A stretch of DNA of 64,000 nt, from positions 930 to 64,929 of the forward strand of contig CAYQVD010000004.1 of assembly GCA_964421125.1 (NCBI GenBank), written 5' to 3'. The position numbers were made by a program, and so were the translations under genes. Below are positions 10,341 to 64,000 of this stretch, piece by piece; the first letter of the stretch is position 1; each line of letters opens with the position of its first letter. The notes below the pieces were generated by a model. It did no database searches, was not told the DNA's origin, and saw only the letters and a list, made by a program, of their open reading frames with translations. Source of the DNA: an uncultured Bdellovibrionales bacterium. GTDB taxonomy: Bacteria > Patescibacteriota > Minisyncoccia > Moranbacterales > DUUL01.

Positions 10341-10496
10341 ATATTTATTTGTATTTATATTAATAATCGTACCATACAGTTATTACATGTGTCAACTTTT
10401 GTTCGAACTATTTTTATCACAAGCACCTTCATTGGTCAATTTATTATGCAATGTATATTGTATTATGTCAAGACCACTAATTTCCTCTCTTTAAAT

Positions 10497-11045
10497 TGTT
10501 TCACGTGAAACATTCTGAAATATAAAAATCCTCTTATTAAGGCCTTCAAAAATTAACAAATTTTTAAATTTTCCCTTTTTGTTTCACGTGAAACAATCTG
10601 AAATGTAAAAGCCTTAATAATAGGGGTTTTATAAATTAACAAACTTTTGAAACGCATGAAAATGTTTCACGTGAAACATTCTGAAATGGAAAAGCCTTAA
10701 TAATAGGGTATTGTAAATTAATAAACTTTTAAAGTATCCCTTTTTGTTTCACGTGAAACATTTCTTAGTTTTTAATTGCTGTTTTTTAATCTAAATTGTT
10801 TCACGTGAAACATTTTATAACGTTAAACATAAATAAAGATCCTTTCTTAAATGATCCTTTTTGTTTCACGTGAAACATTCTGAAAAAACCAAATAAAACC
10901 AACTAGCTATAAAGACCATGAGATAAGCATATCCAAAAGTTATCAAATTTTAAAAGGATTATAATTGTTTCACGTGAAACATTTTAATAATAACCTACTT
11001 GACAATTTCACCTCCCTTAAATGCTATAATGTTTCACGTGAAACA
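10497..11045. repeat. Array of 8 copies of the perfect 16-bp palindrome TGTTTCACGTGAAACA (at 10497, 10580, 10663, 10745, 10797, 10862, 10966, 11030); the first four sit in ~83-bp tandem units
   Basis: Every copy is identical. Flanking sequence is partly conserved between units: CCTTTTTGTTTCACGTGAAACATTCTGAAAT.GAAAAGCCTTAATAATAGGG..TAAATTAACAAAC. Confidence 0.9.
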
Positions 11046-11214
11046 TTTTGACTATATTAATATCTCTACCCCTTGACATAATTATATATTCGTGTTTTAA
11101 ATAATTTATTAGTCCTTTTCTACGTAATTTTACAAAGTCCCCCAATATTAACAAATGTATGCATTTGCTTAAAAAATAACTCTGTAGTTTCAGCCTATGG
11201 TTGATCACCCGAAA

Positions 11215-11351: not shown

Positions 11352-12761
11352 ATGACCCATGACGAATTTTGGCAGGCAGTTCTTGGAGAAATAGAGCTTT
11401 CCTTGTCAAAAGCAAGTTTCACAACTTGGTTTAAAAATACTTCAGTTAATCAAATCGGCGACTCCGAGTTTGTTTTGAATGTTCCAAATATTTTTGCTAA
11501 AGAATGGTTAGAAAAAAAATATCGAAAAAATATTCTGGATTCTGTTCAAAAATTTTACCCCAAAGTAACAAAGTTTTCTTGTTTAATCTCTGATAGTCAG
11601 GATTCTTCTCGAAGCATTGACTCTATTGTAAACTTAAAAACAAATCAGTCTCAACAACAAACAAATGCTTCTTCACAGCCACAACGAAATAAACTTAACA
11701 AACCTTCTTCAAAGCCTTTTGGAGGATTTTCTGTTAATAGTAACCTTAACAATCGATATGGCTTTAATTCTTTTGTAATTGGTTCCAATAATGAACTCGC
11801 TTATGCCGCTTGTCGATCAGTCGCGGAAAATCCAGGAAAAAATTATAATCCACTTTTTGTTTATGGGGGAGTAGGACTAGGAAAAACGCATCTTCTTCAA
11901 TCAACAGGGAGTGAGATTCTTCAAAATTTTCCTAATAAAAAAGTGAAGTATATTAGCATGGAAAGATTTGCTAATGAGCTTGTTACTGCAATTCAAACAT
12001 CAAAAGCTAAGAATTTTAAAAATGAATACATTCAACTCGACGTATTAATTATTGATGATGTTCAATTTCTTTCTAATAAAGAAAAGACTCAGGAAGAGTT
12101 TTTTCATGTATTCGAATCATTATATCAACTAGAAAAACAGATAATTATCAGTTCTGATCGACCACCAAAATCAATTCCAACCCTTGAAGATAGACTTCGT
12201 TCAAGATTTGAGGGAGGGATGATGGCTGATATTAGTAAGCCTGATTTAGAAACAAGAATGGCAATTATTAAAAAGAAATTGGCAGAAAAGAATTTCAAGC
12301 TAGACGAGGATATTATTATTTATTTAGCTGAAAATATCTATCATAACGTTCGAGAACTCGAAGGAGCTCTAAATAAAATAATTGTAACCTATCAACTAAA
12401 AAATTATCCTCCATCTCTTGAAAAAATAATGGGTCAAACAGAAGATGTTATATCAACTAATCGACAAAAAGATTTAAGCCCAGATAAAATTATCTGTTCT
12501 GTTGCAGAATTTTTTGATGTTAAAAAAGAAGAAATAATAGGTCGTTGCAGAAAAAAGAAAATTATTAAACCAAGACAACTTGCAATATACCTATTAAGGA
12601 CTGAATTAAACCTTTCTTTTCCTGAAATAGGGAAGGCAGTTGGTGGTCGAGATCACTCAACTGCTATTTATGCTTGTGGAAAAATTGAAAAAGAATTGGA
12701 GGGTAATAAAATTATGGAAGATCATTTAAAATTTATTAAGGAAAAATTTGTAGATTTTTAA
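11352..12761 (+). CDS. dnaA: Chromosomal replication initiator protein DnaA
   Basis: N-terminus WQAVLGEIELSLSKASFTTWFKNT, Walker A GGVGLGKTHLLQ, and the C-terminal DNA-binding region KPRQLAIYLLRTELNLSFPEIGKAVGGRDHSTAIYA. Confidence 0.95.
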   Translation: MTHDEFWQAVLGEIELSLSKASFTTWFKNTSVNQIGDSEFVLNVPNIFAKEWLEKKYRKNILDSVQKFYPKVTKFSCLISDSQDSSRSIDSIVNLKTNQSQQQTNASSQPQRNKLNKPSSKPFGGFSVNSNLNNRYGFNSFVIGSNNELAYAACRSVAENPGKNYNPLFVYGGVGLGKTHLLQSTGSEILQNFPNKKVKYISMERFANELVTAIQTSKAKNFKNEYIQLDVLIIDDVQFLSNKEKTQEEFFHVFESLYQLEKQIIISSDRPPKSIPTLEDRLRSRFEGGMMADISKPDLETRMAIIKKKLAEKNFKLDEDIIIYLAENIYHNVRELEGALNKIIVTYQLKNYPPSLEKIMGQTEDVISTNRQKDLSPDKIICSVAEFFDVKKEEIIGRCRKKKIIKPRQLAIYLLRTELNLSFPEIGKAVGGRDHSTAIYACGKIEKELEGNKIMEDHLKFIKEKFVDF

Positions 12762-12936: not shown

Positions 12937-13521
12937 ATGAACAAAGAAACACCACAACAAGAAACTATTAAAGGTCAAAAAGAAGTCTCAATAGAAAACC
13001 AGGAAAAGATAGATTTAAAATGGAATATAGTAAATAACCCTAACTCTACTGAGGAATATCTTGAAGACATCACTGATTCTAATAAACAACTTGAACGGTA
13101 CCAAGAAAGAGGGAACGGATTTAGACATCTCAGTATTTTTAAAGAAAATATTAATCAGGGAGAAATGATAAAGGAAGTGCTTAATGAAAATGGTGATAAG
13201 GATAAGTTTAATGAGGTTGATGAAAATTTACAAAATTATAAAGAAAAACTAAAAGAGACAGTTGATATAATTGCAAAAAAATGGGAAGACGATTTAAATA
13301 TGGGGCGATTAATGATTTTAGAAGAATTATATACAACTTTAGAGGATAATAAAGAAGCACAAAAATTTAAAGAAATGTTTGAAGAAAAAAGGAGACCAAA
13401 GGATTTAGTTAAAAATGAGGATGTGGTAGATAAAAAACCAAAACTGATTGATTATTCAGCCCAAGAACAAGAGGATAAACAGCAGACAGAAGAAATAAAA
13501 AAGAAGATAGATGAATTATAA
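12937..13521 (+). CDS. Acidic, Lys/Glu-rich hypothetical protein inserted between dnaA and dnaN
   Basis: 194 aa, low complexity, predicted coiled coil. Confidence 0.5.
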   Translation: MNKETPQQETIKGQKEVSIENQEKIDLKWNIVNNPNSTEEYLEDITDSNKQLERYQERGNGFRHLSIFKENINQGEMIKEVLNENGDKDKFNEVDENLQNYKEKLKETVDIIAKKWEDDLNMGRLMILEELYTTLEDNKEAQKFKEMFEEKRRPKDLVKNEDVVDKKPKLIDYSAQEQEDKQQTEEIKKKIDEL

Positions 13522-13589
13522 CTTATTAAATTTATAATTTAATATCCTGTTAACAACCTGTGAATTAGATGTTAAGGATGTTAATTAAA

Positions 13590-13796
13590 ATGTTAATAAG
13601 TTATCCAAAAACTACTCTACTTTACTATTAATAAGTTATCAACATTAATATTTAATACTTTTAAACTTTTTTATCCCCAAGTTTTAATGCTAATTATATT
13701 TATAAATAAAGGATTTTTATAACTTATTAACATAAAAGTTTATAGTAGTAATAATAGTATTTAATAATATATATAATTTATATAACTATACACACC
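13590..13796 (+). promoter_or_regulatory. Putative oriC core: DnaA-box-like sites (TTATCCAAA, TTATCAACA, TTATCCCCA) followed by an extremely AT-rich unwinding element just upstream of dnaN
   Basis: The boxes lie at about 13597, 13627 and 13671. Positions 13680-13795 are more than 85% A+T, and the region sits in the canonical dnaA-dnaN position. Confidence 0.55.
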
Positions 13797-14945
13797 ATGA
13801 AATTTACTTGTAAAACAAATAATTTAAAAGAAGCAGTTAGTAAAGTTGAAAGAATTGTTTCTAAACAAACAACCTTACCAATTTTAGCTAATATTTTAAT
13901 TAAAACAGAAAAAGGAAGGTTGTTAATTGGAGCAACTAATCTTGAAATAGCAATTCGTTCTTATGTGGGAGCTAAAATTGAAAAAGAAGGAGAAATAACT
14001 ATTCCAGCTAGAATATTAAGTGGTTTTTTAACTAGCATTAGAGATGATACTGTAAAATGTGAGTTAAGTGGAACAGAATTAAAGGTTAATTCTGAAAATC
14101 ATAAAATTAAAATAAAGGGGATGGAAGCAAAGGATTTTCCAATTATTCCTCAAGTGCCAAGTGAGTATTTTATTAAAATAAATTCTAATAATTTTAATAA
14201 AGCAATTCCAGGATTATTAGTTTCAGTTGCTCATAATGATACTAGACAGGAATTAAATGGGATATTAATTAAGTTTTCGTTGAAGGAAATTGTTTTTGCT
14301 TCAACAGATAGTTTTCGATTAACTGAAACTAAAATTGAATTACCAGAAGAGGCAATAGGTGAGGATTATGAGGTTTTTATAAATAATACACCGTCAATTA
14401 TTATTCCTTATTTAACTCTTTCTGAATTACAGAGAATTATTGAAGATGGTGAGTTTGAATTAATAATTAGTCAAAATCAATTATTTATTAAAAATGATTC
14501 AGTTAATTTAATTTCAAGGCTAATTAATGGAAGTTATCCAGAATATAATCAGGTTTTACCAGAAAAATATGAAATAGAAGCTAGGATTAATAAAAGCGAA
14601 TTTTTAAATGCTCTTAAAATTGCTTCGTTAGTAGCATCGGTTAATAATGGTGAAGTTAAAATTAGTAATTCTAAGAATAATAAATTTTTAAAAATATCCG
14701 CTGAGTCAGTTGATTCAGGAGAAAATATTTCTAAAATTGAGGCTGAGATAAGTGGTCCAGAATTTGAAGTTATATTTAATTGTCGTTATTTATTAGAAGG
14801 ATTGAATATAGTTGAATCAGATGTTGATAATATTTTATTGAAGTTAAATCCTAGTAAATCACCAGTTATGATTAGAGGATTGAAATCTGAAAAAGAGGAA
14901 GATGAAAAATTTTCTTATGTGATTATGCCTATAATTAAAGGATAA
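13797..14945 (+). CDS. dnaN: DNA polymerase III beta sliding clamp
   Basis: 382 aa; the opening MKFTCKTNNLKEAVSKVERIVSKQTTLPILANILIKTEKGRLLIGATNLEIAIRSYV is typical of DnaN. Confidence 0.9.
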   Translation: MKFTCKTNNLKEAVSKVERIVSKQTTLPILANILIKTEKGRLLIGATNLEIAIRSYVGAKIEKEGEITIPARILSGFLTSIRDDTVKCELSGTELKVNSENHKIKIKGMEAKDFPIIPQVPSEYFIKINSNNFNKAIPGLLVSVAHNDTRQELNGILIKFSLKEIVFASTDSFRLTETKIELPEEAIGEDYEVFINNTPSIIIPYLTLSELQRIIEDGEFELIISQNQLFIKNDSVNLISRLINGSYPEYNQVLPEKYEIEARINKSEFLNALKIASLVASVNNGEVKISNSKNNKFLKISAESVDSGENISKIEAEISGPEFEVIFNCRYLLEGLNIVESDVDNILLKLNPSKSPVMIRGLKSEKEEDEKFSYVIMPIIKG

Positions 14946-39602: not shown

Positions 39603-39670
39603 AGAGTGGACAAGATAAAATGTTTATTTTCTTTTGATTATGGACTACTAAGTGAGTGAGAGGAGTTGAG

Positions 39671-39768
39671 AATGTAGAATCTTTATTTTTTTCACTGAAT
39701 TTATTTTTGCTAATTCAAAGTCTTTCTTTTTAATATCATTACGTTCAAAAAATAAAGATTCTACATTT
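39671..39768. repeat. Palindromic intergenic element A: conserved core (TTTTCACTGAATTTAT ... TCTTTCTTTTTAATATCATTACGTTCAAAAAATAA) flanked by 17-bp inverted repeats (AATGTAGAATCTTTATT / AATAAAGATTCTACATT)
   Basis: Copies with the same core but different, self-complementary outer arms lie at 41781-41909 and 42517-42621. Confidence 0.75.
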
Positions 39769-39865
39769 CATAATATTAGAGATAAATTTAAGGGAGTTGT
39801 TATAAAAAAACAAAAAGCTTATTCATATGAATAAGCTTTTTTGTATATTAAAGTGCTGTGTATTG

Positions 39866-41659
39866 TTAAATTTTTCTTTTAATTTCTTCTTCTTTGTAGC
39901 AAAGAAGGGAGTCTCCGACTTCTATTTTTTCTTTTCCATTAAAAGTAATTCCGCATTCTAGTCCAGATTTTACTTCTGCGACCTCTTCTTTGTTTTGTTG
40001 AAGTTGAACAAGTTCTCCTACTCCAATATGAATTTTTTCGCGAAGGATTTCCATTTTTTCTCCTTTTATAATTTTCCCATCATTAACTTTTCCTCCAATA
40101 ATCATTTGACCTTTTCCACTCTTGAAAATTGCTAAAACTTTCATTCTTCCAAGGTCAGTTCTTTTTATTTCAGGCTCAAGTAATTCTGACATTTCATTTT
40201 TAATATCTTCAACAAGTTCATAGATAACATTATATGATTTTACTTTTACATTGCTATCTTGGGCTATTCTTGTTGCAATAGATGTTGGGAAAACATTAAA
40301 TCCATAAACAAGAGCTGTTCCTGATTGAGCAGCCTTGATATCTGATTCAGTGATGAACCCAACTCCATTTTTAACAATGTCAATTTGAATTTCGTCTGAA
40401 GGTAGGGATTGTAGTATTTGGACAACTGCTTCAAGTGATCCTTGGACATCTGTTTTGAGGACTATTGATAGCTTTGTCTTTTTGGTTTCATCAATATTTC
40501 TAATAAGTTGCTTTGAACTTAAATTCATCAATCCAACAAGTGAATCATTATCAATTCCTTGAAATTGCTTTATTTTTCTTTTTAATTCTGCTTTGTTGGT
40601 TTCCACTCTAAAGACATCATTGCTTTCAGGGGACTTTGGAAGTCCTATTATTGTTACTGGAGTAGACGGACCAGCTTCTTTAATTGTTTTGCCAGTATAA
40701 TCTTCCATGCTTCTTGCTCGTCCAATAATTTTTCCAATAATGATATCATCTCCAACCTTTAGCGTTCCGGTTTTTATTAAAATTGTTGCAACTGGACCGC
40801 GCTGAGGATCTTTGTGAGACTCTAATACGATTCCAATAGCTCCTTTTTTTGCATCAGATTTAAAATCGTGAATATCTGAAACTAGGAGAAGTGTATCTAA
40901 AAGTTCATCAAGTCCCGTGTCATTTTTAGCAGAGATTTCATTAAAAGGTGTATCTCCTCCGTATCCTTCAACAAGTAATCCTATTTCAGCTAATTCTTGT
41001 TTAACTCGGTTAGCATTAGCCTCTGGTTTGTCGATTTTATTTATTGCTACAACTGTAGGAATTTTATTTTCAGTTAAAAACTTAACAACTTCTTTTGTTT
41101 GTGGTTTTACTCCATCATCTGCTGCAACAACAAGAATGGTAATATCAGCAATAGCTGCTCCTCTTTGTCTCATTGCCTGAAAGGCTTCATGCCCAGGAGT
41201 GTCAATGAATGTTATTAAGCGATCTTTTTTCTTTACTTGATAAGCATTGATGTGCTGAGTGATTCCTCCCGATTCTCCTTCGGCAATGTGGGCCTTTCTG
41301 AGCGTATCTAGCAGAGTTGTTTTCCCATGATCAACATGACCAAGAATGGTCACAATTGGTGGTCGGAAGGTAAGATCTTCTTCTTTTGCTTCTTCCTGTA
41401 ATTCTTTTTTAAGGTTTTCTATTGTAAAGATCTCACTGTTTTCTTGTATAACTTCTTGTTCTGCAATAAATCCAAGTTCTTCGCTGATAATATAAGCAGT
41501 TTCAAAATCAATCGTATCATTAAGATTTGCGATTATCCCGTTTTCCATTAATTTTTTCAATACTTCGGCAATTCCCAAGTCTAATCTATCTGAAAGTTCC
41601 TTAACTGTTAGTTGAGATGGAAGAGAAACTGGCTTTTTTTCTACTTGTTCTTCTGTCAT
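39866..41659 (-). CDS. infB: Translation initiation factor IF-2 (short N-terminus)
   Basis: GHVDHGKTTLLD, DTPGHEAF, NKIDK, and a C-terminal beta-barrel domain. Confidence 0.9.
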   Translation of the reverse strand: MTEEQVEKKPVSLPSQLTVKELSDRLDLGIAEVLKKLMENGIIANLNDTIDFETAYIISEELGFIAEQEVIQENSEIFTIENLKKELQEEAKEEDLTFRPPIVTILGHVDHGKTTLLDTLRKAHIAEGESGGITQHINAYQVKKKDRLITFIDTPGHEAFQAMRQRGAAIADITILVVAADDGVKPQTKEVVKFLTENKIPTVVAINKIDKPEANANRVKQELAEIGLLVEGYGGDTPFNEISAKNDTGLDELLDTLLLVSDIHDFKSDAKKGAIGIVLESHKDPQRGPVATILIKTGTLKVGDDIIIGKIIGRARSMEDYTGKTIKEAGPSTPVTIIGLPKSPESNDVFRVETNKAELKRKIKQFQGIDNDSLVGLMNLSSKQLIRNIDETKKTKLSIVLKTDVQGSLEAVVQILQSLPSDEIQIDIVKNGVGFITESDIKAAQSGTALVYGFNVFPTSIATRIAQDSNVKVKSYNVIYELVEDIKNEMSELLEPEIKRTDLGRMKVLAIFKSGKGQMIIGGKVNDGKIIKGEKMEILREKIHIGVGELVQLQQNKEEVAEVKSGLECGITFNGKEKIEVGDSLLCYKEEEIKRKI

Positions 41660-41780
41660 ATAAAGTTTATTTAATTACTCTTCTTTATATCAGGTTATCA
41701 GTCTAAAGTCAAAAAAAGTCCCTAATTACGGGAAATTTTAATGTACTTGAACGGAAGTAGTGAAATTTGATAGAATTAAA

Positions 41781-41909
41781 ATTAAGTATATTTATTTTTT
41801 CACTGAATTTATCTTTCTTTTATAATAAATTAGTGGTTTTCTAGGGGGTTTTATGACTCTTGAGTCTTTCTTTTTAATATCATTACGTTCAAAAATAAAC
41901 ATACTTAAT
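41781..41909. repeat. Palindromic intergenic element B (same core as A; outer arms ATTAAGTATATTTATTTTTT / AAAAATAAACATACTTAAT)
   Basis: Seen directly; lies between the infB start and the stop of the upstream gene. Confidence 0.75.
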
Positions 41910-41966
41910 TTCAATTCTACTTTTAAAGGGGTAGTAAACAGAGAGGTAAGAGATATTTTGTGACTA

Positions 41967-42470
41967 TTAAAGATTCTTTTTAATCTTCTGGTTATTTTTA
42001 TCTATAGAAGCTGTTTTTATCGCTTGTTTTTCCTCTTCAGTTAAAGGATATTTAGCAGATGCTCCTTTTTGGATTGATTTTGAATAAATTCTAACCCCAT
42101 CTCTTGAATAAAGGGATGAAATAACGACTCCGTTGTCGTCTCCGTCTAAGAGTGCTAATGAAAAACTTTGATCTCCTCCGATGTCTCGAAAGGGATTAAA
42201 TCGAATAAAGCCGGTTTTATGAATTCCCTTAAGGGCAAGGGATTGAATTTTAGAAGTAATTTCATAGAGATCATGAACCTCCTCGTCTAGTTTTTCAGTT
42301 TTTTGGTTATTTGATAAGACGATTTTTTCAAGATCTTTTCCGTTTTTTCCCTTGAAAAGAATTGTTTGTTTCTTTTGAAGTTGAGATATTTTGATTTGCA
42401 GAAAAATTACCCAAAATAAAAGAATTACAATTCCTCCTGCTAGAATATATATAATATTTGAATTTTCCAT
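41967..42470 (-). CDS. DUF4446-like protein with an N-terminal TM helix
   Basis: ...GFIRFNPFRDIGGDQSFSLALLDGDDNGVVISSLYSRDGVRIYSKSI... matches the DUF4446 signature as recalled. Confidence 0.5.
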   Translation of the reverse strand: MENSNIIYILAGGIVILLFWVIFLQIKISQLQKKQTILFKGKNGKDLEKIVLSNNQKTEKLDEEVHDLYEITSKIQSLALKGIHKTGFIRFNPFRDIGGDQSFSLALLDGDDNGVVISSLYSRDGVRIYSKSIQKGASAKYPLTEEEKQAIKTASIDKNNQKIKKNL

Positions 42471-42516
42471 TGTTTTTGCTTAATATTCTAATAGTTACTC
42501 ATGAGTACTAAATGTG

Positions 42517-42621
42517 TACAAAGATAAAATATTTATTTATTTTCACTGAATTTAATCCTGGTAACTTTAGGCCTCATTTCTTGATATCATTATGTTCAAA
42601 AAATAACTATTTTATCTTTGT
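42517..42621. repeat. Palindromic intergenic element C (same core as A and B; outer arms ACAAAGATAAAATATTTATTTATTTT / AAAAAATAACTATTTTATCTTTGT)
   Basis: Seen directly. Confidence 0.7.
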
Positions 42622-42633
42622 GTTTATCTTAGT

Positions 42634-43422
42634 TTATTCTATCTTATCGGTCGTATTTTGCAAATCTTTTTCTTGGAAATTCTTGGTTTCTGGTAGAAGA
42701 TTCCACATCACTTCAAAGATAGACTTAATTCCTTCAAAAATTTTTGAACTTTCAATGATAATCCCCAAGTCTTCTTTGTATGAAATTATTCCTAGTTTTG
42801 TCTTCCCGTAAATTTTTATTTCTAAATCAAGTCCAGAAAAGGCATTATCTGCGGAAAATTTTGTTTTAGTGATTCCTTTTTCTTTTATATCTTGAGCAAA
42901 GACTCTGTTTTCGGGGGAGTCAGGGACAATAGCTCTGGCCCAAATTTTTTTATTAATTCTTTCGGGCAAGTAATGTTTCCAGAAGTATTCTTCACCAAGA
43001 TTAATGTATGGATAAGGATACCAAGTCAGGATTTCCTGGTTACTATAGCGTAATGTGTCCTCAAAAACTTCTTTAACTCCAGTTAATCCCTCGAAATACC
43101 TTATTTTTGGCTTTTTATCAAGTAAGTTCATTATTGAGAGCAGTTCAGGCATGGTTTCTTCAAGCGTCTTTTTTTTAGTCTCCAGTGACTCAATGAGTTT
43201 TTGGGGGTTTTCTGCTAGGAAAATCGGCTTTTTCCCGCGGTTTGTTTGGCTTATTATTCCTTTTTTCTTAAGGTTTTCAAGGACATCATAGACAGTAGAA
43301 CGCTTGATTCCTGATTTTTGGACAATTTTAGCAATACTGGCTTCACCAAGTTCCATGATCGCTAAATAGACTTTAGCTTCTTTTTCTTCTAGCCCTGCAT
43401 CAATAAGTTTTTGAATAAGCAT
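42634..43422 (-). CDS. TrmB-like wHTH regulator (paralog 2)
   Basis: KEAKVYLAIMELGEASIAKIVQKSGIKRSTVYDVLENLKKKGII; C-terminal domain conserved with the other paralogs. Confidence 0.7.
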   Translation of the reverse strand: MLIQKLIDAGLEEKEAKVYLAIMELGEASIAKIVQKSGIKRSTVYDVLENLKKKGIISQTNRGKKPIFLAENPQKLIESLETKKKTLEETMPELLSIMNLLDKKPKIRYFEGLTGVKEVFEDTLRYSNQEILTWYPYPYINLGEEYFWKHYLPERINKKIWARAIVPDSPENRVFAQDIKEKGITKTKFSADNAFSGLDLEIKIYGKTKLGIISYKEDLGIIIESSKIFEGIKSIFEVMWNLLPETKNFQEKDLQNTTDKIE

Positions 43423-43657: not shown

Positions 43658-44218
43658 ATGTTTGGAAAAATAAATAAAGTAGAAAGATTTGTTGCTATCA
43701 AAGATGCAAAACATAACATGCTTTATCACAGAATTAGCCCAAGATTTTATATGAACATTAGAAAAGCAATGTTAGGTGATAAGGAGTGGAATCAAGTCTT
43801 TGATGAAGCTTCTTTTGATGAGTGTATCAGGTTTTTGAAAATGGATCTTTATGAGAATGGGAATGTTAATTCCTATGCTATTGAAAAAATGATCGAGATT
43901 ATTTCTGAAGAAAAAGGAGAAAAGAAGTTTTGGTTGTTAGTGAAGGCAACTCCTTTTCTTCAAAGACGAAGTGACTATGGAGGGTGGCAATATATCACTC
44001 AAGAAGCCAGGGAAGTGTTAATGGCTATTTATTGGGAAATTGAAAGTGCTCCTAATTATTCAATTTTTCTTTGGGCTTCTGATGAAAATAATCATCGAGC
44101 TTGTGGAAACATTCCTTTTATGAAGGCAATTAACCAGAAAGTACGAAAGCTTTCAGGAAACAAGGCTTTTAAAATTAAATATTTAAAGGAGGGAAAGAAA
44201 AAATTTCGGATGAAATAA
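43658..44218 (+). CDS. Hypothetical protein (186 aa), divergent from TrmB-like paralog 2
   Basis: RBS GGGAGAGGGG; no recognisable domain. Confidence 0.5.
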   Translation: MFGKINKVERFVAIKDAKHNMLYHRISPRFYMNIRKAMLGDKEWNQVFDEASFDECIRFLKMDLYENGNVNSYAIEKMIEIISEEKGEKKFWLLVKATPFLQRRSDYGGWQYITQEAREVLMAIYWEIESAPNYSIFLWASDENNHRACGNIPFMKAINQKVRKLSGNKAFKIKYLKEGKKKFRMK

Positions 44219-44257
44219 AAGGTGAAAGCAAGTCTGTCTAGAAAATTTGCTAACTAA

Positions 44258-44304
44258 AAAACCGAGCCAAGTTTGTTATCATACAAACTTGGCTCTTTTA
44301 TTTT
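44258..44304 (+). terminator. Rho-independent terminator
   Basis: ACCGAGCCAAGTTTGT..ACAAACTTGGCTC stem followed by TTTTATTTTT. Confidence 0.7.
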
Positions 44305-44423
44305 TCGTGGAAAGTCTTGAAAAAAAGAATTATTTAATATAGTATTAGTTTTAGTTTAGTTAATGTTTTTGTATTGAAAGAATCTTTTCTAAAAACTAAT
44401 AACTATAAGCTAAAAACTAAAAA

Positions 44424-44497
44424 GGGTGATTAGCTCAGTTGGTTAGAGCGCTTGCTCGACACGCAAGAGGTCAGTGGTTCAAATCCTCTATCACCCA
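44424..44497 (+). tRNA. tRNA-Val (anticodon GAC); the anticodon loop reads UCGACAC, so position 33 is C rather than U
   Basis: GGGTGAT acceptor, GCTCAGTTGGTTAGAGC D-arm, CTTGC/GCAAG anticodon stem, TTCAAAT T-loop. Confidence 0.7.
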
Positions 44498-44503
44498 CAA
44501 ATG

Positions 44504-44535
44504 AAAAAACGCCTTTTTTGAAGGCGTTTTTGTAT
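44504..44535. terminator. Bidirectional rho-independent terminator between tRNA-Val and xerC
   Basis: AAAACGCCTT TTTTG AAGGCGTTTT with A-tract and T-tract flanks. Confidence 0.7.
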
Positions 44536-44544
44536 ATTTCAAGT

Positions 44545-45489
44545 TTATTTTCTCTTAGAATATTTTTCATAAACTTCTTTTAGTTTTTCATTGGTGACAT
44601 GGGTGTAGATTTGGGTAGTGCTGATGGAGCTGTGGCCAAGCAGGGATTGAACGCTTCGAATGTCAGCGCCATTTTGAAGAAGATTTGTGGCGAAGCTGTG
44701 ACGAAGAACGTGAGGGGTAACCTTTTTGAGAATACCGGCTTTGGCGGTGTATTTTTTTATCATTCTTTGTATTGATCGAGGAGTGAGACGCAAGTTTGAG
44801 TGCTCGCCGGGATTTTTAACGATTCTAACAAAAAGAGCGGGGTCAACATCGGTTCTTTTTTCGAGATATTTCTGAATGATGTCTCGAGCCTCTTCTGAAA
44901 TAAAAACAATTCTAATTTTTGAGCCTTTTCCTATCACGGAAAATTCTCTCTTTTTTAAATTAATTTGATCACGGTTTAACCTTGTTAATTCAGAAATTCG
45001 AAGTCCAGAAGAAAACAAGAGAATTAGAATGGCTTTATCTCTTTTTTGAGCCAGGGCTTCTCCGTCGGCAGATTTGATTATTTCTCGAACTTCTTCAATA
45101 GTGAGAAAATCAATTACACGGTCTTTCGTTTTTGCTAGTTCAATTTTTTCTGGAGCAAGTGATTTAATATTTTTTTTAGTAAGATACCCCAAAAAACCTC
45201 TTAGTGCGATAATGTAATAATTTTGAGTTCTGTGAGTGATTAATTTTTTATGAGGTCCCTTTTGACGGCTTAAAGAAACTCTGAATTTATGAACAATTTC
45301 TTCTGTGATTTCTTCTGGATTTTTTAGTTTTGACCATTTTAAAAATTTTAAAAGATAGCGATCATAGTTTTCAATTGTTTTTGGAGAACGATTTTTATCT
45401 ACTTCTAAATATTCTAGGAAATCAGTCTTTAATTTTTGTAAATTATTCATTGAAAAATGATATTTTTTATGATACACTCTTTTTACCAT
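44545..45489 (-). CDS. xerC: Tyrosine site-specific recombinase, XerC/XerD-like
   Basis: C-terminal HVLRHSFATNLLQNGADIRSVQSLLGHSSISTTQIYTHV (R..H..Y triad) and a Xer-type N-terminus. Confidence 0.8.
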   Translation of the reverse strand: MVKRVYHKKYHFSMNNLQKLKTDFLEYLEVDKNRSPKTIENYDRYLLKFLKWSKLKNPEEITEEIVHKFRVSLSRQKGPHKKLITHRTQNYYIIALRGFLGYLTKKNIKSLAPEKIELAKTKDRVIDFLTIEEVREIIKSADGEALAQKRDKAILILLFSSGLRISELTRLNRDQINLKKREFSVIGKGSKIRIVFISEEARDIIQKYLEKRTDVDPALFVRIVKNPGEHSNLRLTPRSIQRMIKKYTAKAGILKKVTPHVLRHSFATNLLQNGADIRSVQSLLGHSSISTTQIYTHVTNEKLKEVYEKYSKRK

Positions 45490-48557: not shown

Positions 48558-49310
48558 TTAATAACTTTTTATTTTTACTTTGGGCAAATTATCCCACAAA
48601 AGTTCAAAAATTGTTCTTAGTGTTTTATGGATTTCTGCTCCTTCAATAATAATTCCTATCTCTTCTCTCGAAGACATTAAGGCAACTTTTTGATGACCAT
48701 AAATATTAATTTCAACAGAAAAGGGATATTTTTTAGCATCAATTAATTTTGATGTACGTAACTGTTTTTGGTCTTTGTCGAAAAAGTTTTTCTCAATTAT
48801 TCCAGTTTTAGTCATAATTGCACGTACTCGTAAACCTTTTTCTATTCTTTTTTTAAGATAATCATTTGTCCAATCGATTCCCAAAACATTTACTACGTCT
48901 TCTGAGGCGAATGCTAACATTTCTCCGGAGTAACTTAGTGTATCCGTATAAACTTCCCTAAGACCGTTTTTTCCTTCATAAAATCTAATTTTTGGTCTTA
49001 TTCCTTTAATATTATACATGGATTTTAATATAGGCAACATTTCATCGAGTATTCTCTCTTTTTCAATTACTTCTTTCTTTATTTTTTCTGGATTTTCTGC
49101 TACAAAAAAACGCCTTTTTTCTTTAAAAGTCTCATAAATGAAATTTTCTTTTTTTAGATTAACTAAAATGTCATAACAAGTCGTTCTCTTCACTTCTGAT
49201 TTTTTGGCGATTTCAATAACTGTTCCGCTACCTAATTCTAAAACAGCTAAATAAATATTTGCTTTTTTTCCTTCAAGATCAAATTTTTTCAGAAAATCTT
49301 TTATTTGCAT
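48558..49310 (-). CDS. TrmB-like wHTH regulator (paralog 3)
   Basis: KKANIYLAVLELGSGTVIEIAKKSEVKRTTCYDILVNLKKENFI. Confidence 0.7.
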   Translation of the reverse strand: MQIKDFLKKFDLEGKKANIYLAVLELGSGTVIEIAKKSEVKRTTCYDILVNLKKENFIYETFKEKRRFFVAENPEKIKKEVIEKERILDEMLPILKSMYNIKGIRPKIRFYEGKNGLREVYTDTLSYSGEMLAFASEDVVNVLGIDWTNDYLKKRIEKGLRVRAIMTKTGIIEKNFFDKDQKQLRTSKLIDAKKYPFSVEINIYGHQKVALMSSREEIGIIIEGAEIHKTLRTIFELLWDNLPKVKIKSY

Positions 49311-50674: not shown

Positions 50675-50782
50675 CTTCTTTTAATTTGGACAAGTGTTGA
50701 TTTTTTATAATTATATGCTAGACTTTGAGAAGTTTTCAATCAACTAGTTAACTGCAAAAGGTTATTTGTTAATTGTTGACAC

Positions 50783-51092
50783 GCCGGGGTAGCTCAGTGG
50801 TAGAGCAAAGGACTGGTTTTCGGTCCACTTCAGAGTAATCTGTTGTTAAAAATTGGGTGAATTCGGGGAAACCTAAGTTTGTTTAAACAAATAAGGCAAT
50901 CCCGAGCCAAGCTTCAAAGGGCTTTGTTTTTGAAGAAGGTGTAGAGACTAGCAGGTGAGTCCCAACAATAATCTTGCATAAGCGCCCAACTCCTATTAGT
51001 TAAATAGGATGATGAGATAGTCCAATCTTTTAGGAAACTTTAAGGCAAACAGGAAAATCCTTGTGTCGAGAGTTCAATTCTCTCCCCCGGCA
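50783..51092 (+). tRNA. tRNA-Phe (anticodon GAA) interrupted in the anticodon loop by a group I intron. Exon 1 is 50783-50814 and exon 2 is 51053-51092
   Basis: Joined exons give GCCGGGGTAGCTCAGTGGTAGAGCAAAGGACU|GAAAAUCCUUGUGUCGAGAGUUCAAUUCUCUCCCCCGGCA. This matches bacterial tRNA-Phe in its anticodon loop (ours CUGAAAA, 32C; E. coli UUGAAAA) and in the variable loop GUGUC. Confidence 0.75.
50815..51052 (+). ncRNA. Group I self-splicing intron (~238 nt, no ORF)
   Basis: P1 forms between the exon end GGACU and the internal guide GGUCC, with a U.G pair at the 5' splice site. A P7-like pairing is present (GACUAG at 50946 with UAGUC at 51018). The element CGGGGAAACC is present, the terminal G precedes exon 2, and the exons rejoin into a canonical tRNA. 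Confidence 0.65.
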
Positions 51093-51412: not shown

Positions 51413-52546
51413 TTACTTTTTAAAATAATTTTTTCCGTAATTTTCATAGTATTTGAAAATTTCCGGAATTGCCAGCCATTTATCTGACTGGAAACGAAGA
51501 TCTTCTGAAACTTTTAAGCGCTCATTTACTGGCAATTGCATGTGGTAGCAAGTTGTCAGTATTCCATCGGCGTCCATTCTTACTCGGTTAATAAAGTCTC
51601 CGGGAAAAGGATATGCTCCCAGAAAAAGATTGGGAGCGAGTTGGCGAATTAAAAATCCTTCATCTAAATCAGTAATCAAATCTGAAAACTCCAGGTTGGA
51701 AAAATATTTTTTCCATATTACGTGCAGAAGATTTGGAGAAAGAAAATCAACTTTAATCAAAACCTTGGTTTGCAGAGTTTTAGTTTGTAAATCTTCAATT
51801 AATTTTATCAGCAAAGAATCACTATCGCTTTTTCCTTCAAGGGTACATCTTGTAAAAAAGACCATTGGCAAGTTGAGATTTGAAATGTCATTGATTGTTT
51901 GAAAAGGATCGACACCATTTTTAACGAGAATGCAAGAAGCAGTGGCCTTAACATTATTCTCATTTAACATTTTAGCAGCTTTCAGTGATGCTGGGTAATT
52001 CTTTTTTTCGCCGATACTAAAATCTGTAAGAATATTGTTTTTTGCTAAATAAACAGCAATATCCTTGGTTAAATTTATGCCATTAGTAATAATGGCTTTG
52101 CGGGGAGCTTGCACCATTTCTAGAACGTTACGGGTGCGGTTCCATGTTTCAAGCGGTTCCATGCCAACGATGGCAAAATCAACCGCCTGAAGTTTATTGC
52201 TGACAGAAGAGAGTTCTTTTTCAGTGGGAAGGCTTTTGATCTGCATATTGCGTTTTCGTAAGTAGCAATGTCGGCATCCCAAAGAACATTGATTATTTGA
52301 AAAGGCTGAAACGCTCATGTTCAACGGAATGTTTTGTATGGTGGAGAAAAAATCAGTCCAAGACATTTTTTTGTTTGCTGTCATGAGAGTTGCTTTCTGA
52401 AAATTTTCATTTGGCTTCGTGAGTGAAGCTTTCTCTGTCAGCAGTTCTTTGCTTCCTTCTATTCCTAATGCCATAATATCATCTCCTTTCCTTTCTTGAT
52501 TATATGAATAAAGTATTCCTTTGCTTCCTTCAAATCCTACTGCCAT
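51413..52546 (-). CDS. Radical SAM protein of unknown function (CxxxCxxC motif CSLGCRHC); start ambiguous
   Basis: The C-x3-C-x2-C motif is followed by about 300 aa, with no SPASM-type Cys cluster. Two alternative RBS-supported starts (52546, 52474) result from a ~35-bp direct duplication of the start region. The track's start at 52618 would overlap the divergent promoter. Confidence 0.55.
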   Translation of the reverse strand: MAVGFEGSKGILYSYNQERKGDDIMALGIEGSKELLTEKASLTKPNENFQKATLMTANKKMSWTDFFSTIQNIPLNMSVSAFSNNQCSLGCRHCYLRKRNMQIKSLPTEKELSSVSNKLQAVDFAIVGMEPLETWNRTRNVLEMVQAPRKAIITNGINLTKDIAVYLAKNNILTDFSIGEKKNYPASLKAAKMLNENNVKATASCILVKNGVDPFQTINDISNLNLPMVFFTRCTLEGKSDSDSLLIKLIEDLQTKTLQTKVLIKVDFLSPNLLHVIWKKYFSNLEFSDLITDLDEGFLIRQLAPNLFLGAYPFPGDFINRVRMDADGILTTCYHMQLPVNERLKVSEDLRFQSDKWLAIPEIFKYYENYGKNYFKK

Positions 52547-52611
52547 AGTATCTTCTCCTATTATTAAATGTTTTTTCAAGGAACTAACTGTATGCAATAT
52601 AGTATGTAGAA

Positions 52612-52649
52612 TTGACAAGAATGTAAAAAAATGTACAATTTATGTACAT
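52612..52649 (+). promoter_or_regulatory. Promoter (TTGACA, 16-bp spacer, TACAAT) overlapped by the inverted repeat ATGTACA-N5-TGTACAT (candidate autoregulatory operator); it implies a near-leaderless mRNA for the 52650 ORF
   Basis: Spacing counted directly; the palindrome spans 52631-52649. Confidence 0.5.
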
Positions 52650-53336
52650 ATGAAAAAGAATCAATTAAAATCTAGTGAATATCTTGTCTTAACTTCAACT
52701 GAAGAAAAAATCGTTTTTCTTTTGGAATCACAACATAAAAAAATGTCAATTTCAGAAATTTCAAAAGAAGTTCAGCTTGCTCGATCTAGCATTTATCGAT
52801 CAATAAGGTCATTGATTAATAAAGAAGTTGTAATAAAAGAACAATTTAAATATTTTTTGACTTTGGATGGTTTAGTGCAAAGTAAGAAATATGTCTTTAA
52901 AGAAAAGATAGAGGATCTTTTGAAAGAAATGCTTAGTTTAAAAAAAGGAGAAATTATTTATTCAATAGAATCTGATGAGGAAATAGAATATCTTTTTAAA
53001 AAAGAGAAGGGTCTTTTAAATTGGCAAAAAAATATTGCCGATAAAGGTATAGTTCTCAAGGGAATAGGAAGTATTAGGGCGTTGTCTTTTTTTAGAAGTA
53101 TTCAGAGTAAAAATTTAAATGCTCAAATAAAAAGAAGAAGCGGTTCTGCGAGATTTATAGTTGAAACTCTCTCTGGCCCTTGTATATTAGTTTCTTTTCG
53201 AAGTTCAATTATATTTTTTTCAAGAAAAAATAAATATTTTTATCGTATAGATGATATTAATGTTTCACGATTTATACAAATTGTTATTGAGACGCTTTAT
53301 TTAAATCTTCAGTATGAACCATTAGTTATTAATTAG
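52650..53336 (+). CDS. TrmB-like wHTH regulator (paralog 6, plus strand), divergent from the radical SAM gene
   Basis: SSEYLVLTSTEEKIVFLLESQHKKMSISEISKEVQLARSSIYRSIRSLINKEVV. Confidence 0.55.
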   Translation: MKKNQLKSSEYLVLTSTEEKIVFLLESQHKKMSISEISKEVQLARSSIYRSIRSLINKEVVIKEQFKYFLTLDGLVQSKKYVFKEKIEDLLKEMLSLKKGEIIYSIESDEEIEYLFKKEKGLLNWQKNIADKGIVLKGIGSIRALSFFRSIQSKNLNAQIKRRSGSARFIVETLSGPCILVSFRSSIIFFSRKNKYFYRIDDINVSRFIQIVIETLYLNLQYEPLVIN

Positions 53337-55686: not shown

Positions 55687-56430
55687 TTAAAAAGAATTTT
55701 CATCTTCTTTTGCACCTTTCCATGCAAGCTTGAAAAGAAAGGTCATGTTTTTTGAAATTTCGGTGCTTTCGATGATTAGTCCGAGTTGTTCTGAAAAACT
55801 CATGAAAGCCACTTTGTTTTCATAAATATTCATTTCAATTGTGAAAGGAAAATCTTCTTTTGAGACAAGTCGAGTTTCTTTAATGTCTCTTAAGTCACCC
55901 TTCTTGTATTCAATTAGCTCTTCTGTGTCTGGCCCAATAGCCCGAACTGCAATTTGGGCTTTTTTTCTCTTGTCTCGATATTCATCAGCAAATTCTTGTC
56001 CAAGTTTTTTAATAATATTTTCTGTGACAAAAGCATAGAGATCTCCTCGGTATTTCAATGTATCTCGATAAACATCCTTGATTCCATTAATTCCTTCATA
56101 GTATCGAATAACAGGTTTTTCTCCGGATGTGTTCACTAAAGATTTTAAGGCTGGCATAAGAATCTCCAGTTTTTTTTGTTTTTCCTCAATAATTTTTTCA
56201 AGATTTTCTGGTTCTTCGGCGATAAACAAGCGTTTTTTGCCTTTTTTGGTTTGAGCAATCAAGCGTTTTTTTTCAAGTTCCGCCAAAACTTCATAAACAG
56301 TGGTTCTTTTGATGCCAGTTTTTCTTGATATTTCAATAACAGTCGATTGTCCCAGCTCCAAAAGGGCAATATAGGTTTCTGCTTGGTTATAATTCAGTCC
56401 AAATTGAGATAATTGTTCTGATATTTGCAT
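55687..56430 (-). CDS. TrmB-like wHTH regulator (paralog 4)
   Basis: NQAETYIALLELGQSTVIEISRKTGIKRTTVYEVLAELEKKRLI. Confidence 0.7.
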   Translation of the reverse strand: MQISEQLSQFGLNYNQAETYIALLELGQSTVIEISRKTGIKRTTVYEVLAELEKKRLIAQTKKGKKRLFIAEEPENLEKIIEEKQKKLEILMPALKSLVNTSGEKPVIRYYEGINGIKDVYRDTLKYRGDLYAFVTENIIKKLGQEFADEYRDKRKKAQIAVRAIGPDTEELIEYKKGDLRDIKETRLVSKEDFPFTIEMNIYENKVAFMSFSEQLGLIIESTEISKNMTFLFKLAWKGAKEDENSF

Positions 56431-61660: not shown

Positions 61661-61828
61661 TTAAGAGCCTGTTAAGAAAATCTTTTTTCTTATGCAATTT
61701 CCAAATTTAAGCTACAAGAAATTCATCACTCGTCAATATATCACCGATATATTTCCTCGTGCTTCATTCCTTTCACTTTAAATTTGAAAATTTCGTAACG
61801 AAAAAGATTTTCTTAACAGGCTCTGGGA
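61661..61828. repeat. Imperfect ~27-bp inverted repeat (TTAAGAGCCTGTTAAGAAAATCTTTT ... AAAAGATTTTCTTAACAGGCTCT) enclosing ~115 bp, followed by a terminator-like hairpin
   Basis: Seen directly downstream of the 3D-domain gene. Confidence 0.6.
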
Positions 61829-63394: not shown

Positions 63395-64000
63395 TTATGA
63401 TTTCTTACTTTGTTTCCATAGAATTTTAAAAATATTTTTCATCATTTCACTGTGTTCCGGGCTTTCAATTAAAAGTCCGAAATTTTCTTTTTCTGATGAT
63501 ATGTAGAATGTATTGTTATCATATATTATAAATGATTGGGAAAAATTAGCATCATTTTTGTTAGTATAGCGTAATTTTCGGAGTTGTTTATTATGTTTTG
63601 AAAAAACTTTATCTTCTTGGCTTGTTTGCGAACTTAGTCGGATGGTTTTAGTTTCAATTTTTTGATTAATTCTTTTAGAAACATAATCTTTAACAAAATC
63701 TATTCCCAGAATATTATAGAACTTCTTACTTGCCACAACTGCTAAAATTTCTTTTTTTTGGCATTTTAAAGAATCTAGTAATATATTTCTAATCCCTTCT
63801 TTATCGTCAATAAATTTTATATTTGGGACACTTTCACTTTTATTATTAAGTGCGTTTATTTCAGGAATGGCCATTTTTAAATATTTCTTTTTTTTGTCAA
63901 TATTTCTTTTTTGTCGTTCAAGAAACTTTTCAAGATTTTCCGGTTCTTCCATGACAAAGCGTTGATTGTATTTGCTTCCTGCGGTATGAACTAGCCCCTT
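63395..64000 (-). CDS. TrmB-like regulator (paralog 5); the N-terminal wHTH runs off the window end
   Basis: The reading frame stays open upstream of the Met at 63952 (...KGLVHTAGSKYNQRFVMEEPENLEKF...); the C-terminal domain aligns with the other paralogs. Confidence 0.6.
   Translation of the reverse strand, partial: KGLVHTAGSKYNQRFVMEEPENLEKFLERQKRNIDKKKKYLKMAIPEINALNNKSESVPNIKFIDDKEGIRNILLDSLKCQKKEILAVVASKKFYNILGIDFVKDYVSKRINQKIETKTIRLSSQTSQEDKVFSKHNKQLRKLRYTNKNDANFSQSFIIYDNNTFYISSEKENFGLLIESPEHSEMMKNIFKILWKQSKKS

Follow-up and report, generated by a model that had tools for sequence, protein, structure and literature searches.

A candidate family of low-copy palindromic repeats in untranslated regions of housekeeping genes in a small clade of Patescibacteria

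Here we describe a family of hairpin-forming repeats found in a 64,000-nucleotide stretch of DNA from an uncultured bacterium (the window; contig CAYQVD010000004.1, positions 930 to 64,929, assembly GCA_964421125.1), whose host is placed by IF-2 homologs in the Patescibacteria, near the Moranbacteria. Three copies of ~100-150 bp, designated A, B and C, lie around infB, all on the (+) strand of the window. On balance, and with slightly better than even confidence, we interpret them as members of a low-copy, lineage-restricted, non-autonomous palindromic repeat, like the Correia elements (CREE), REPIN and ERIC. Comparison with related genomes shows a hairpin unit that was newly placed in untranslated region (UTR) or intergenic positions of housekeeping genes, in either orientation, since the related lineages split, and whose stem and two conserved blocks were then held by purifying selection.

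In A, B and C alike, TTTTCACTGAATTT is followed by a spacer and then by ATATCATTAYGTTCAAAAA. The invariant 5' block, TTTTCACTGAATTT(A), occupies 39689-39703, 41797-41811 and 42540-42554 (+), and the invariant 3' block, TATCATTAYGTTCAAAAA, occupies 39734-39751, 41878-41895 and 42585-42602 (+). Exact matches to the 15-mer TTTTCACTGAATTTA occur in the 64 kb only at 39689, 41797 and 42540, and those to the 18-mer TATCATTAYGTTCAAAAA only at 39734, 41878 and 42585, which confirms the claim of an initial annotation of this DNA that three elements in the same orientation, with a shared core, surround infB. C departs from the core sequence quoted in that annotation (TTTAA, CATTTCTTGATATCATTATG), and the A-run of B is one A shorter. 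A profile hidden Markov model built from the copies revealed no diverged extra copy in the window. Exactly 32 nt separate the blocks in A and C, as well as in three further copies (C2, D and E) described below; B has a middle region of 68 nt (41811-41878 (+)) in place of the usual 32. Within the ~36 additional nt of B, the 5' block recurs in inverted form, ATAAATTAGTG (41825-41835), and this copy pairs with CACTGAATTTAT to form a sub-hairpin.

Each unit is one long hairpin, with a ~55-nt asymmetric core that carries the blocks, CACTGAATTT and GATATCATTACGTTC, 32 nt apart. The closing stems, 21-30 bp long and almost pure A/T, consist of a conserved inner stem of 10-15 bp, TTTATTTTTTT/AAAAAATAAA (in all copies TTTATTTTTT(T)/AAAAA(A)TAAA), and an outer part of 10-20 AT-rich bp that differs between copies and sublineages. 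Element A spans 39671-39767 (+), with a 21-bp stem (39671-39691 / 39747-39767) around an asymmetric core at 39692-39746, and element C spans 42518-42621 (+), with its stem at 42518-42541 / 42598-42621 and 2 mismatches. Element B had been located correctly, but its complementarity reaches further out than first drawn, to 41771-41919 (+), with a ~29-bp stem (41771-41800 / 41890-41919) whose two A.C mismatches become G.U pairs on the minus strand. Terminal inverted repeats are thus present, with arms of 21-38 nt that are 84-92% complementary (A, 87% over 30 nt; B, 84% over 38 nt; C, 92% over 24 nt). Folding of each copy on both strands, as the initial annotation had suggested, gave z-scores of -3.2 to -7.2 for A, B and C; no inner secondary structure of the core is conserved on either strand across the copies. 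The region of A, B and C is 100% identical in independent ENA, Logan and JGI assemblies, so the elements are not an assembly artefact, and three assemblies have contigs that stop within B, C or E, which is the expected behaviour of a repeat.

The neighbouring genes are those the initial annotation had named, Pfam giving TatD, IF-2, DUF4446 and TrmB. Element A lies in the 3' region of tatD, between the tatD stop codon and a bidirectional infB/tatD terminator (39812-39841, AAAAAGCTTATTCATATGAATAAGCTTTTT) that is kept in relatives and is not part of the element. Element B follows the DUF4446 stop codon and precedes the terminator of that gene (41711-41733 (-)), upstream of the infB promoter ((-) TTGACT at 41707-41712, a 17-nt spacer, TATAAA at 41684-41689); terminator and promoter are both kept in relatives without B, and neither is part of the element. 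Element C begins 13 nt past the TrmB stop codon and lies 47 nt ahead of the DUF4446 start. By predicted promoters and terminators, every copy of the family would be contained within a UTR. Copies A, D and E run in the sense direction of the transcribed strand, and B, C and C2 in the antisense direction.

The three further copies bring the total to six distinct ones. Copy E, found in the proS leader, belongs to the window's own genome, since the samples from which it was assembled also yielded contigs that match the window identically. Copy D lies in the ileS leader of a related metagenome-assembled genome, UBA2193, between the T-box terminator and the start codon. Copy C2 is the ortholog of C in the UBA2193 lineage and has the same arms. 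The genome scan and the metagenome scan, one of each, required an exact match to the core pattern. Among genomes, one per species, the 3' block gave 65 loci, of which 64 were chance matches and UBA2193 alone was true, and among JGI metagenomes the two blocks together gave 11 loci, with E as the sole true copy. Viral contigs and GenBank phages yielded chance matches or none, and no Rfam 15 covariance model matched over the elements at the gathering score or at E<=10. With so few true copies in these scans, the family appears to be rare and restricted to one small clade.

Evidence for recent movement comes from relatives whose IF-2 is 83-88% identical to that of the window genome, where insertion polymorphism was seen at all five sites A-E. 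Sites A (tatD/infB) and B (DUF4446/infB) are occupied in the window and empty in the UBA2193 lineage, in L088 and in L091-93; at the orthologous positions, A is absent in L084, L088 and L091, and B is absent in L080, L088, L090 and L091. These empty sites keep the adjacent DUF4446 terminator, the infB promoter (TTGACT-17-TATAAA) and the infB terminator. Site C (TrmB/DUF4446) is occupied in the window and, as C2, in the UBA2193 lineage, and it is empty in L088, since there the last ~15 nt of TrmB are kept and just 45 nt separate them from DUF4446. Site D (ileS leader) is occupied in the UBA2193 lineage and empty in the window genome, whose syntenic ileS leader keeps the T-box and lacks D. Conversely, site E (proS leader) is occupied in the window genome and empty in the UBA2193 lineage, where the proS leader keeps its promoter (TTGACA-17-TAAAAT) and lacks E. 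That A, B and E are empty in sisters and D in the window genome shows that copies were gained in each lineage since the split. The element is duplicative or was so until recently, its copies recently inserted or duplicated, and C is the oldest of them. The idea that the elements are fixed regulatory structures, which followed from the initial annotation, is contradicted by the same absences.

Several further features of these loci were noted. The infB-tatD spacer differs between close strains (L080 4426-5247 versus L084 and window 39603-39865), and it contains an HD-domain gene (194 aa) in L080-L082 that is missing from L084 and the window. A called 66-aa ORF (open reading frame) in this spacer sits on a long AT-rich palindrome and is probably no gene. 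The AT-rich palindromes at the relatives' empty A and D sites proved to be extended terminator arms, unrelated to the element. In the ileS leader, the T-box riboswitch (AAGGTGGTACCACG, then a terminator) is present in both lineages (L099 2781-3265, L094 9483-10000).

The arms had been described as varying between copies and yet pairing within each copy, and the six copies bear this out. Ten of the 25 stem pairs are changed on both sides and still paired, 89.8% of stem cells are paired versus at most 56.5% with the partner slid, and none of 500 shuffles reached the observed covariation values. The arms are copy-specific only in part. Those of A and B are unrelated in their outer portions, but A and D, which sit at unrelated places in different genomes, both carry GAAT[G]TAGAAYC / GRTTCTA[C]ATT, with one whole G:C pair gained or lost between them, which argues that arms travel with the element. 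Copies B and E have the first ~7 bp beyond the common stem in common. None of the arm sequences was found elsewhere in the ~200 kb examined. Two kinds of symmetric change stand out: in C2, the two neighbouring changes GTTC>GTGA perfect the stem, and in B, one T and one A are gone from paired runs.

Conservation of the hairpin is most evident between C and C2. Identity is 31/32 over the left arm and 5' block and 31/36 over the 3' block and right arm, ~91% for arms and blocks together, versus ~45% in the middle ~30 nt. Four-fold degenerate sites, compared between the window and the UBA2193 lineage, are identical at 0.43 in infB, 0.51 in DUF4446 and 0.30 in TrmB, near the 0.37 expected from composition only, so neutral sites are saturated; the intergenic flanks are not alignable. 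Conservation of C and C2 over saturated divergence, together with the covariation of the stem, indicates that the stem and the two blocks are constrained, and the selection for a hairpin that the initial annotation had suspected appears to be purifying selection on this structure.

A number of observations weigh against a mobile palindromic repeat. First, the copies are few: only six distinct ones are known, at least 4 in ~100 kb of the window genome and 2 in UBA2193, and exact-core-pattern scans of 596 Gb of genomes and of the JGI metagenomes found none beyond the clade. Second, no target-site duplication is visible around A, B, C, C2, D or E, the flanks of the copies are unrelated, and homology does not extend beyond the stems; no precise empty site could be aligned among the available lineages either, because the intergenic DNA between them is saturated. 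Third, the blocks of A and B are identical at 43/46 positions and their outer arms at 15/24, about the level expected for unrelated AT-rich DNA. This mismatch would not be explained by simple copy-and-paste without recombination or arm remodelling, and the relationships among copies appear mosaic, which implies recombination between copies or wholesale remodelling of arms. Finally, the sole candidate for a partner is an IS3-like fragment past the window end, and its end is unlike the element. A scan of 29 window ORFs, roughly half of those with >=90 aa, turned up no partner transposase and no RAYT or Y1 (HUH) transposase.

The IS3-like fragment is itself worth recording. Just beyond position 64000, L106 1-110 encodes the C-terminus of an IS3/rve-type transposase (...EYVRYYNQERYQWDLKKMTPVGYRNHLLEFAR*), and since three independent assemblies break at this same point, the insertion sequence is probably multi-copy in the genome. 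A resemblance of the right flank of B to an IS3-like end (TCTACTTT(T)AAAGGG(G)TA) was not upheld by a 2-edit search.

A first alternative is that the copies are paralogous structured RNAs, either cis-acting UTR elements or small RNA genes, under host selection only, with a distribution produced by old duplications and losses. It fits the covarying stem, the conservation of C and C2 across saturated divergence, and the position of all copies in UTRs of genes related to translation (infB, proS, ileS and the tatD/metG operon). Element B fits as well, since on the transcribed strand its two mismatched stem pairs read G.U and its fold is better by 6.7 kcal/mol. Nonetheless, we consider it unlikely. 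The transcribed element strand differs between copies though the asymmetric core is invariant, the inner structure is conserved on neither strand, and mixed orientation together with the lack of a conserved inner fold makes a strand-specific RNA role of the core unlikely; the small RNA proposed in the initial annotation loses its footing on the same two counts. When G.U pairs and folding energy were used to tell the strands apart, the copies disagreed, the energy favouring the transcribed strand in some and not in others. Moreover, promoter and terminator signals are no higher than shuffled expectation, no Rfam family matches even at E<=10, and the absence of A and B in four sister lineages would require several independent losses.

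The unrelated outer arms of A and B raise a second alternative, namely that only a ~77-nt core with its inner stem moves, and that it either lands in existing palindromes or has its outer stem rebuilt by fold-back copying of the flank, so that arms are derived from the site. The near-identical cores of A and B between unrelated outer arms would be explained in this way, as would the symmetry of the arm changes, whole base-pair indels included, and the inverted duplication within B. The genome's intergenic DNA holds many long AT-rich palindromes, a TAGAA../..TTCTA motif recurs at the outer arm ends of A, D and B, and L088 has an unoccupied hairpin, AAATTAGAA-CGC-TTCTAATTT, that resembles the D arms. 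Against this stand the arms shared by A and D in different genomes, most simply taken as inherited with the element, as well as the absence of the arm sequences from the rest of the ~200 kb and the empty orthologous sites, which show no matching palindrome. We know of no enzyme that acts in this manner, and we judge the idea distinctly improbable.

A third alternative takes the element to be a DNA-level site, whether a cruciform, a locus bound by a protein or a recombination site of the XerC/D-like integrase nearby. The tyrosine recombinase gene (44545-45489) and a tRNA-Val are 2 kb from C, the block consisting of a 186-aa gene, TrmB and C is missing in L088, and a function of the conserved core in this setting would not depend on orientation. 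The 3' block may also resemble the XerD half of dif (ATTATGTTAAAT). This alternative is, in our judgement, very improbable, given that the integrase is kept in L088, which has no element, that no recombinase lies near D or E in the sequence examined, and that the blocks lack an 11-6-11 dyad. Complementary arms specific to each copy have no role in double-stranded DNA binding, and a spacer of 55-90 nt disfavours cruciform extrusion, a cruciform in double-stranded DNA being unlikely with a spacer of that length.

Other identities were dismissed more directly. A classic miniature inverted-repeat transposable element (MITE), which the initial annotation had already argued against, is excluded by non-identical arms that occur nowhere else examined, the lack of a visible target-site duplication or flank homology, and low copy number; the many genomic copies with identical inverted repeats and target-site duplications that would mark one were not found, only six distinct copies. 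The conservation pattern is reversed relative to REPIN/RAYT, with loop blocks invariant and the outer stem variable, and it is likewise opposite to that of an integron attC-like site, the stem base being variable and the centre holding the invariant blocks. The RNA terminator or attenuator that had been proposed did not hold, as the stems have no G+C stretch and no U-tract or T-run follows them; a scan for intrinsic terminators found 39812-39841 alone and none at A, B or C, and real terminators and promoters adjoin the elements. An outward promoter (TTGCTA-N18-TAATAT, or an extended -10, TGATATCAT) is not conserved, and promoter sites are no more frequent than in shuffles. A frame shared by the copies (FFTEF...FLISLRSK) is without start codons, and there is no conserved ORF; B alone has GGGGG-N4-ATG and 36 codons (41853-41963), a product of its private insert that is not conserved. 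What we take by eye to be likenesses of the 3' block to a Fur box, a LexA box, dif, the phiX174/pC194 nick site and IS608 TTAC/TCAA were too weak and were not used.

Returning to the mobile palindromic repeat, the invariant blocks and inner stem may be recognition features for a trans-acting copying enzyme, and recognition of this kind would explain their conservation in both orientations. Because the stem is symmetric and the copies lie in UTRs, a transcript through the element on either strand would form a 21-30 bp AU-rich RNA duplex. Most plausibly, this duplex would serve as a determinant of mRNA processing or stability, for example as an RNase III substrate like the Correia elements. The symmetry of the stem is probably in part mutational, with hairpin-templated (template-switch) events acting besides selection; such events fit the GTTC>GTGA change of C2, the paired T/A loss of B and its inverted copy of the 5' block. 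A bolder version, which we regard as a long shot, is that the conserved 'loop' rebuilds its own stem by fold-back hairpin-templated synthesis, and that an ultra-small host of the Candidate Phyla Radiation (CPR) keeps individual copies in translation-gene leaders and trailers, where they would act as hairpins for RNase III or for processing. To our knowledge, fold-back regeneration of a stem has not been described as a propagation mode for bacterial repeats.

By sequence the family is new, and in architecture and behaviour it is closest to the CREE, REPIN and ERIC-type repeats. The arrangement of inverted repeats enclosing a directional conserved core, placed within predicted transcripts, is that of the Correia/CREE type. 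CREE of Neisseria are of ~100-155 bp, have inverted repeats around a directional core and length variants from internal indels, are found mainly 5' or 3' of genes and within transcripts, are present or absent between strains, and are bound or cut by RNase III in mRNA (PMC2649163). Unlike CREE, our elements have no similarity to them in sequence, no TA target duplication and neither an IHF site nor an outward promoter in evidence; their inverted repeats vary in the outer half, there is a handful of copies versus >100, and the host is a Patescibacterium. Like a REPIN, in whose hairpins compensatory changes are common, each element is one long single-stranded DNA or RNA hairpin, extragenic, non-autonomous and without target-site duplication (PMC3116915). 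Unlike it, the element has invariant loop blocks and a variable outer stem, whereas the REPIN ends (REP 16-mers) are invariant and the spacer variable; its copy number is also far lower, and no gene for a RAYT, the transposase by which REPINs are mobilised, accompanies it among the window ORFs scanned.

ERIC is a ~127 bp imperfect palindrome of transcribed intergenic regions with internal insertions at fixed positions; it evolves slowly, and a constraint on its RNA structure has been argued for. The likeness lies in palindrome size, intergenic placement and insertion variants. Unlike our elements, ERIC lacks a variable outer stem and is conserved from genus to genus over its full length, and the two share no sequence relationship.

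Patescibacteria/CPR have very small genomes that are generally regarded as poor in mobile DNA, and a full-text literature search found no small interspersed repeats or MITEs described in them. In the present family, ~100-bp hairpins were gained recently in the leaders of essential genes, namely infB, proS and, past the T-box, ileS. Purifying selection on one old copy is clear, which makes the family a small, tractable case of a selfish repeat kept by its host, and the symmetric stem changes may be a natural example of hairpin-templated mutation. On the practical side, the repeats break metagenome assemblies of the lineage.

Other features of the window and its relatives were recorded in the course of this analysis. 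A parS-type palindrome, TGTTTCACGTGAAACA, occurs in at least 8 perfect copies within ~560 bp (10490-11048), directly upstream of dnaA (11352-12761), with dnaN at 13797-14945 and DnaA-box-like AT-rich repeats (TTATCCAAA, TTATCAACA) at 13518-13733; the presence of dnaA, dnaN and the parS array indicates that the window spans a replication origin. At ~50782-51090, a tRNA gene (5' exon GCCGGGGTAGCTCAGTGGTAGAGCA..., 3' exon ...GTCGAGAGTTCAATTCTCTCCCCCGGCA) is split by a group I intron (Rfam RF00028, 87.9 bits, 50805-51044), and ARAGORN does not call the tRNA in its unspliced form. The XerC/D-like integrase adjoins tRNA-Val at 43658-45489, and in L088 6922-7240 a further tRNA-like copy, incomplete and split by a GC-rich hairpin, comes after tRNA-Val, an arrangement that may be what is left of a past integration or excision.

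The window also encodes five TrmB-family helix-turn-helix paralogs of ~250-270 aa (1881-2666, 42634-43422, 48558-49310, 52521-53336 and 55687-56430), and another TrmB-family protein is found near the UBA2193 ileS locus (L094 22406-23137). An imperfect palindrome at 61664-61824, between a 3D-domain gene and tRNA-Cys, has 79-nt arms that are 78% complementary around a 3-nt loop and is unrelated in sequence to the elements studied here. Elsewhere in the window's genome, L100 20010-21433 carries a diversity-generating retroelement signature, a bAvd gene beside a reverse transcriptase (RVT_1).

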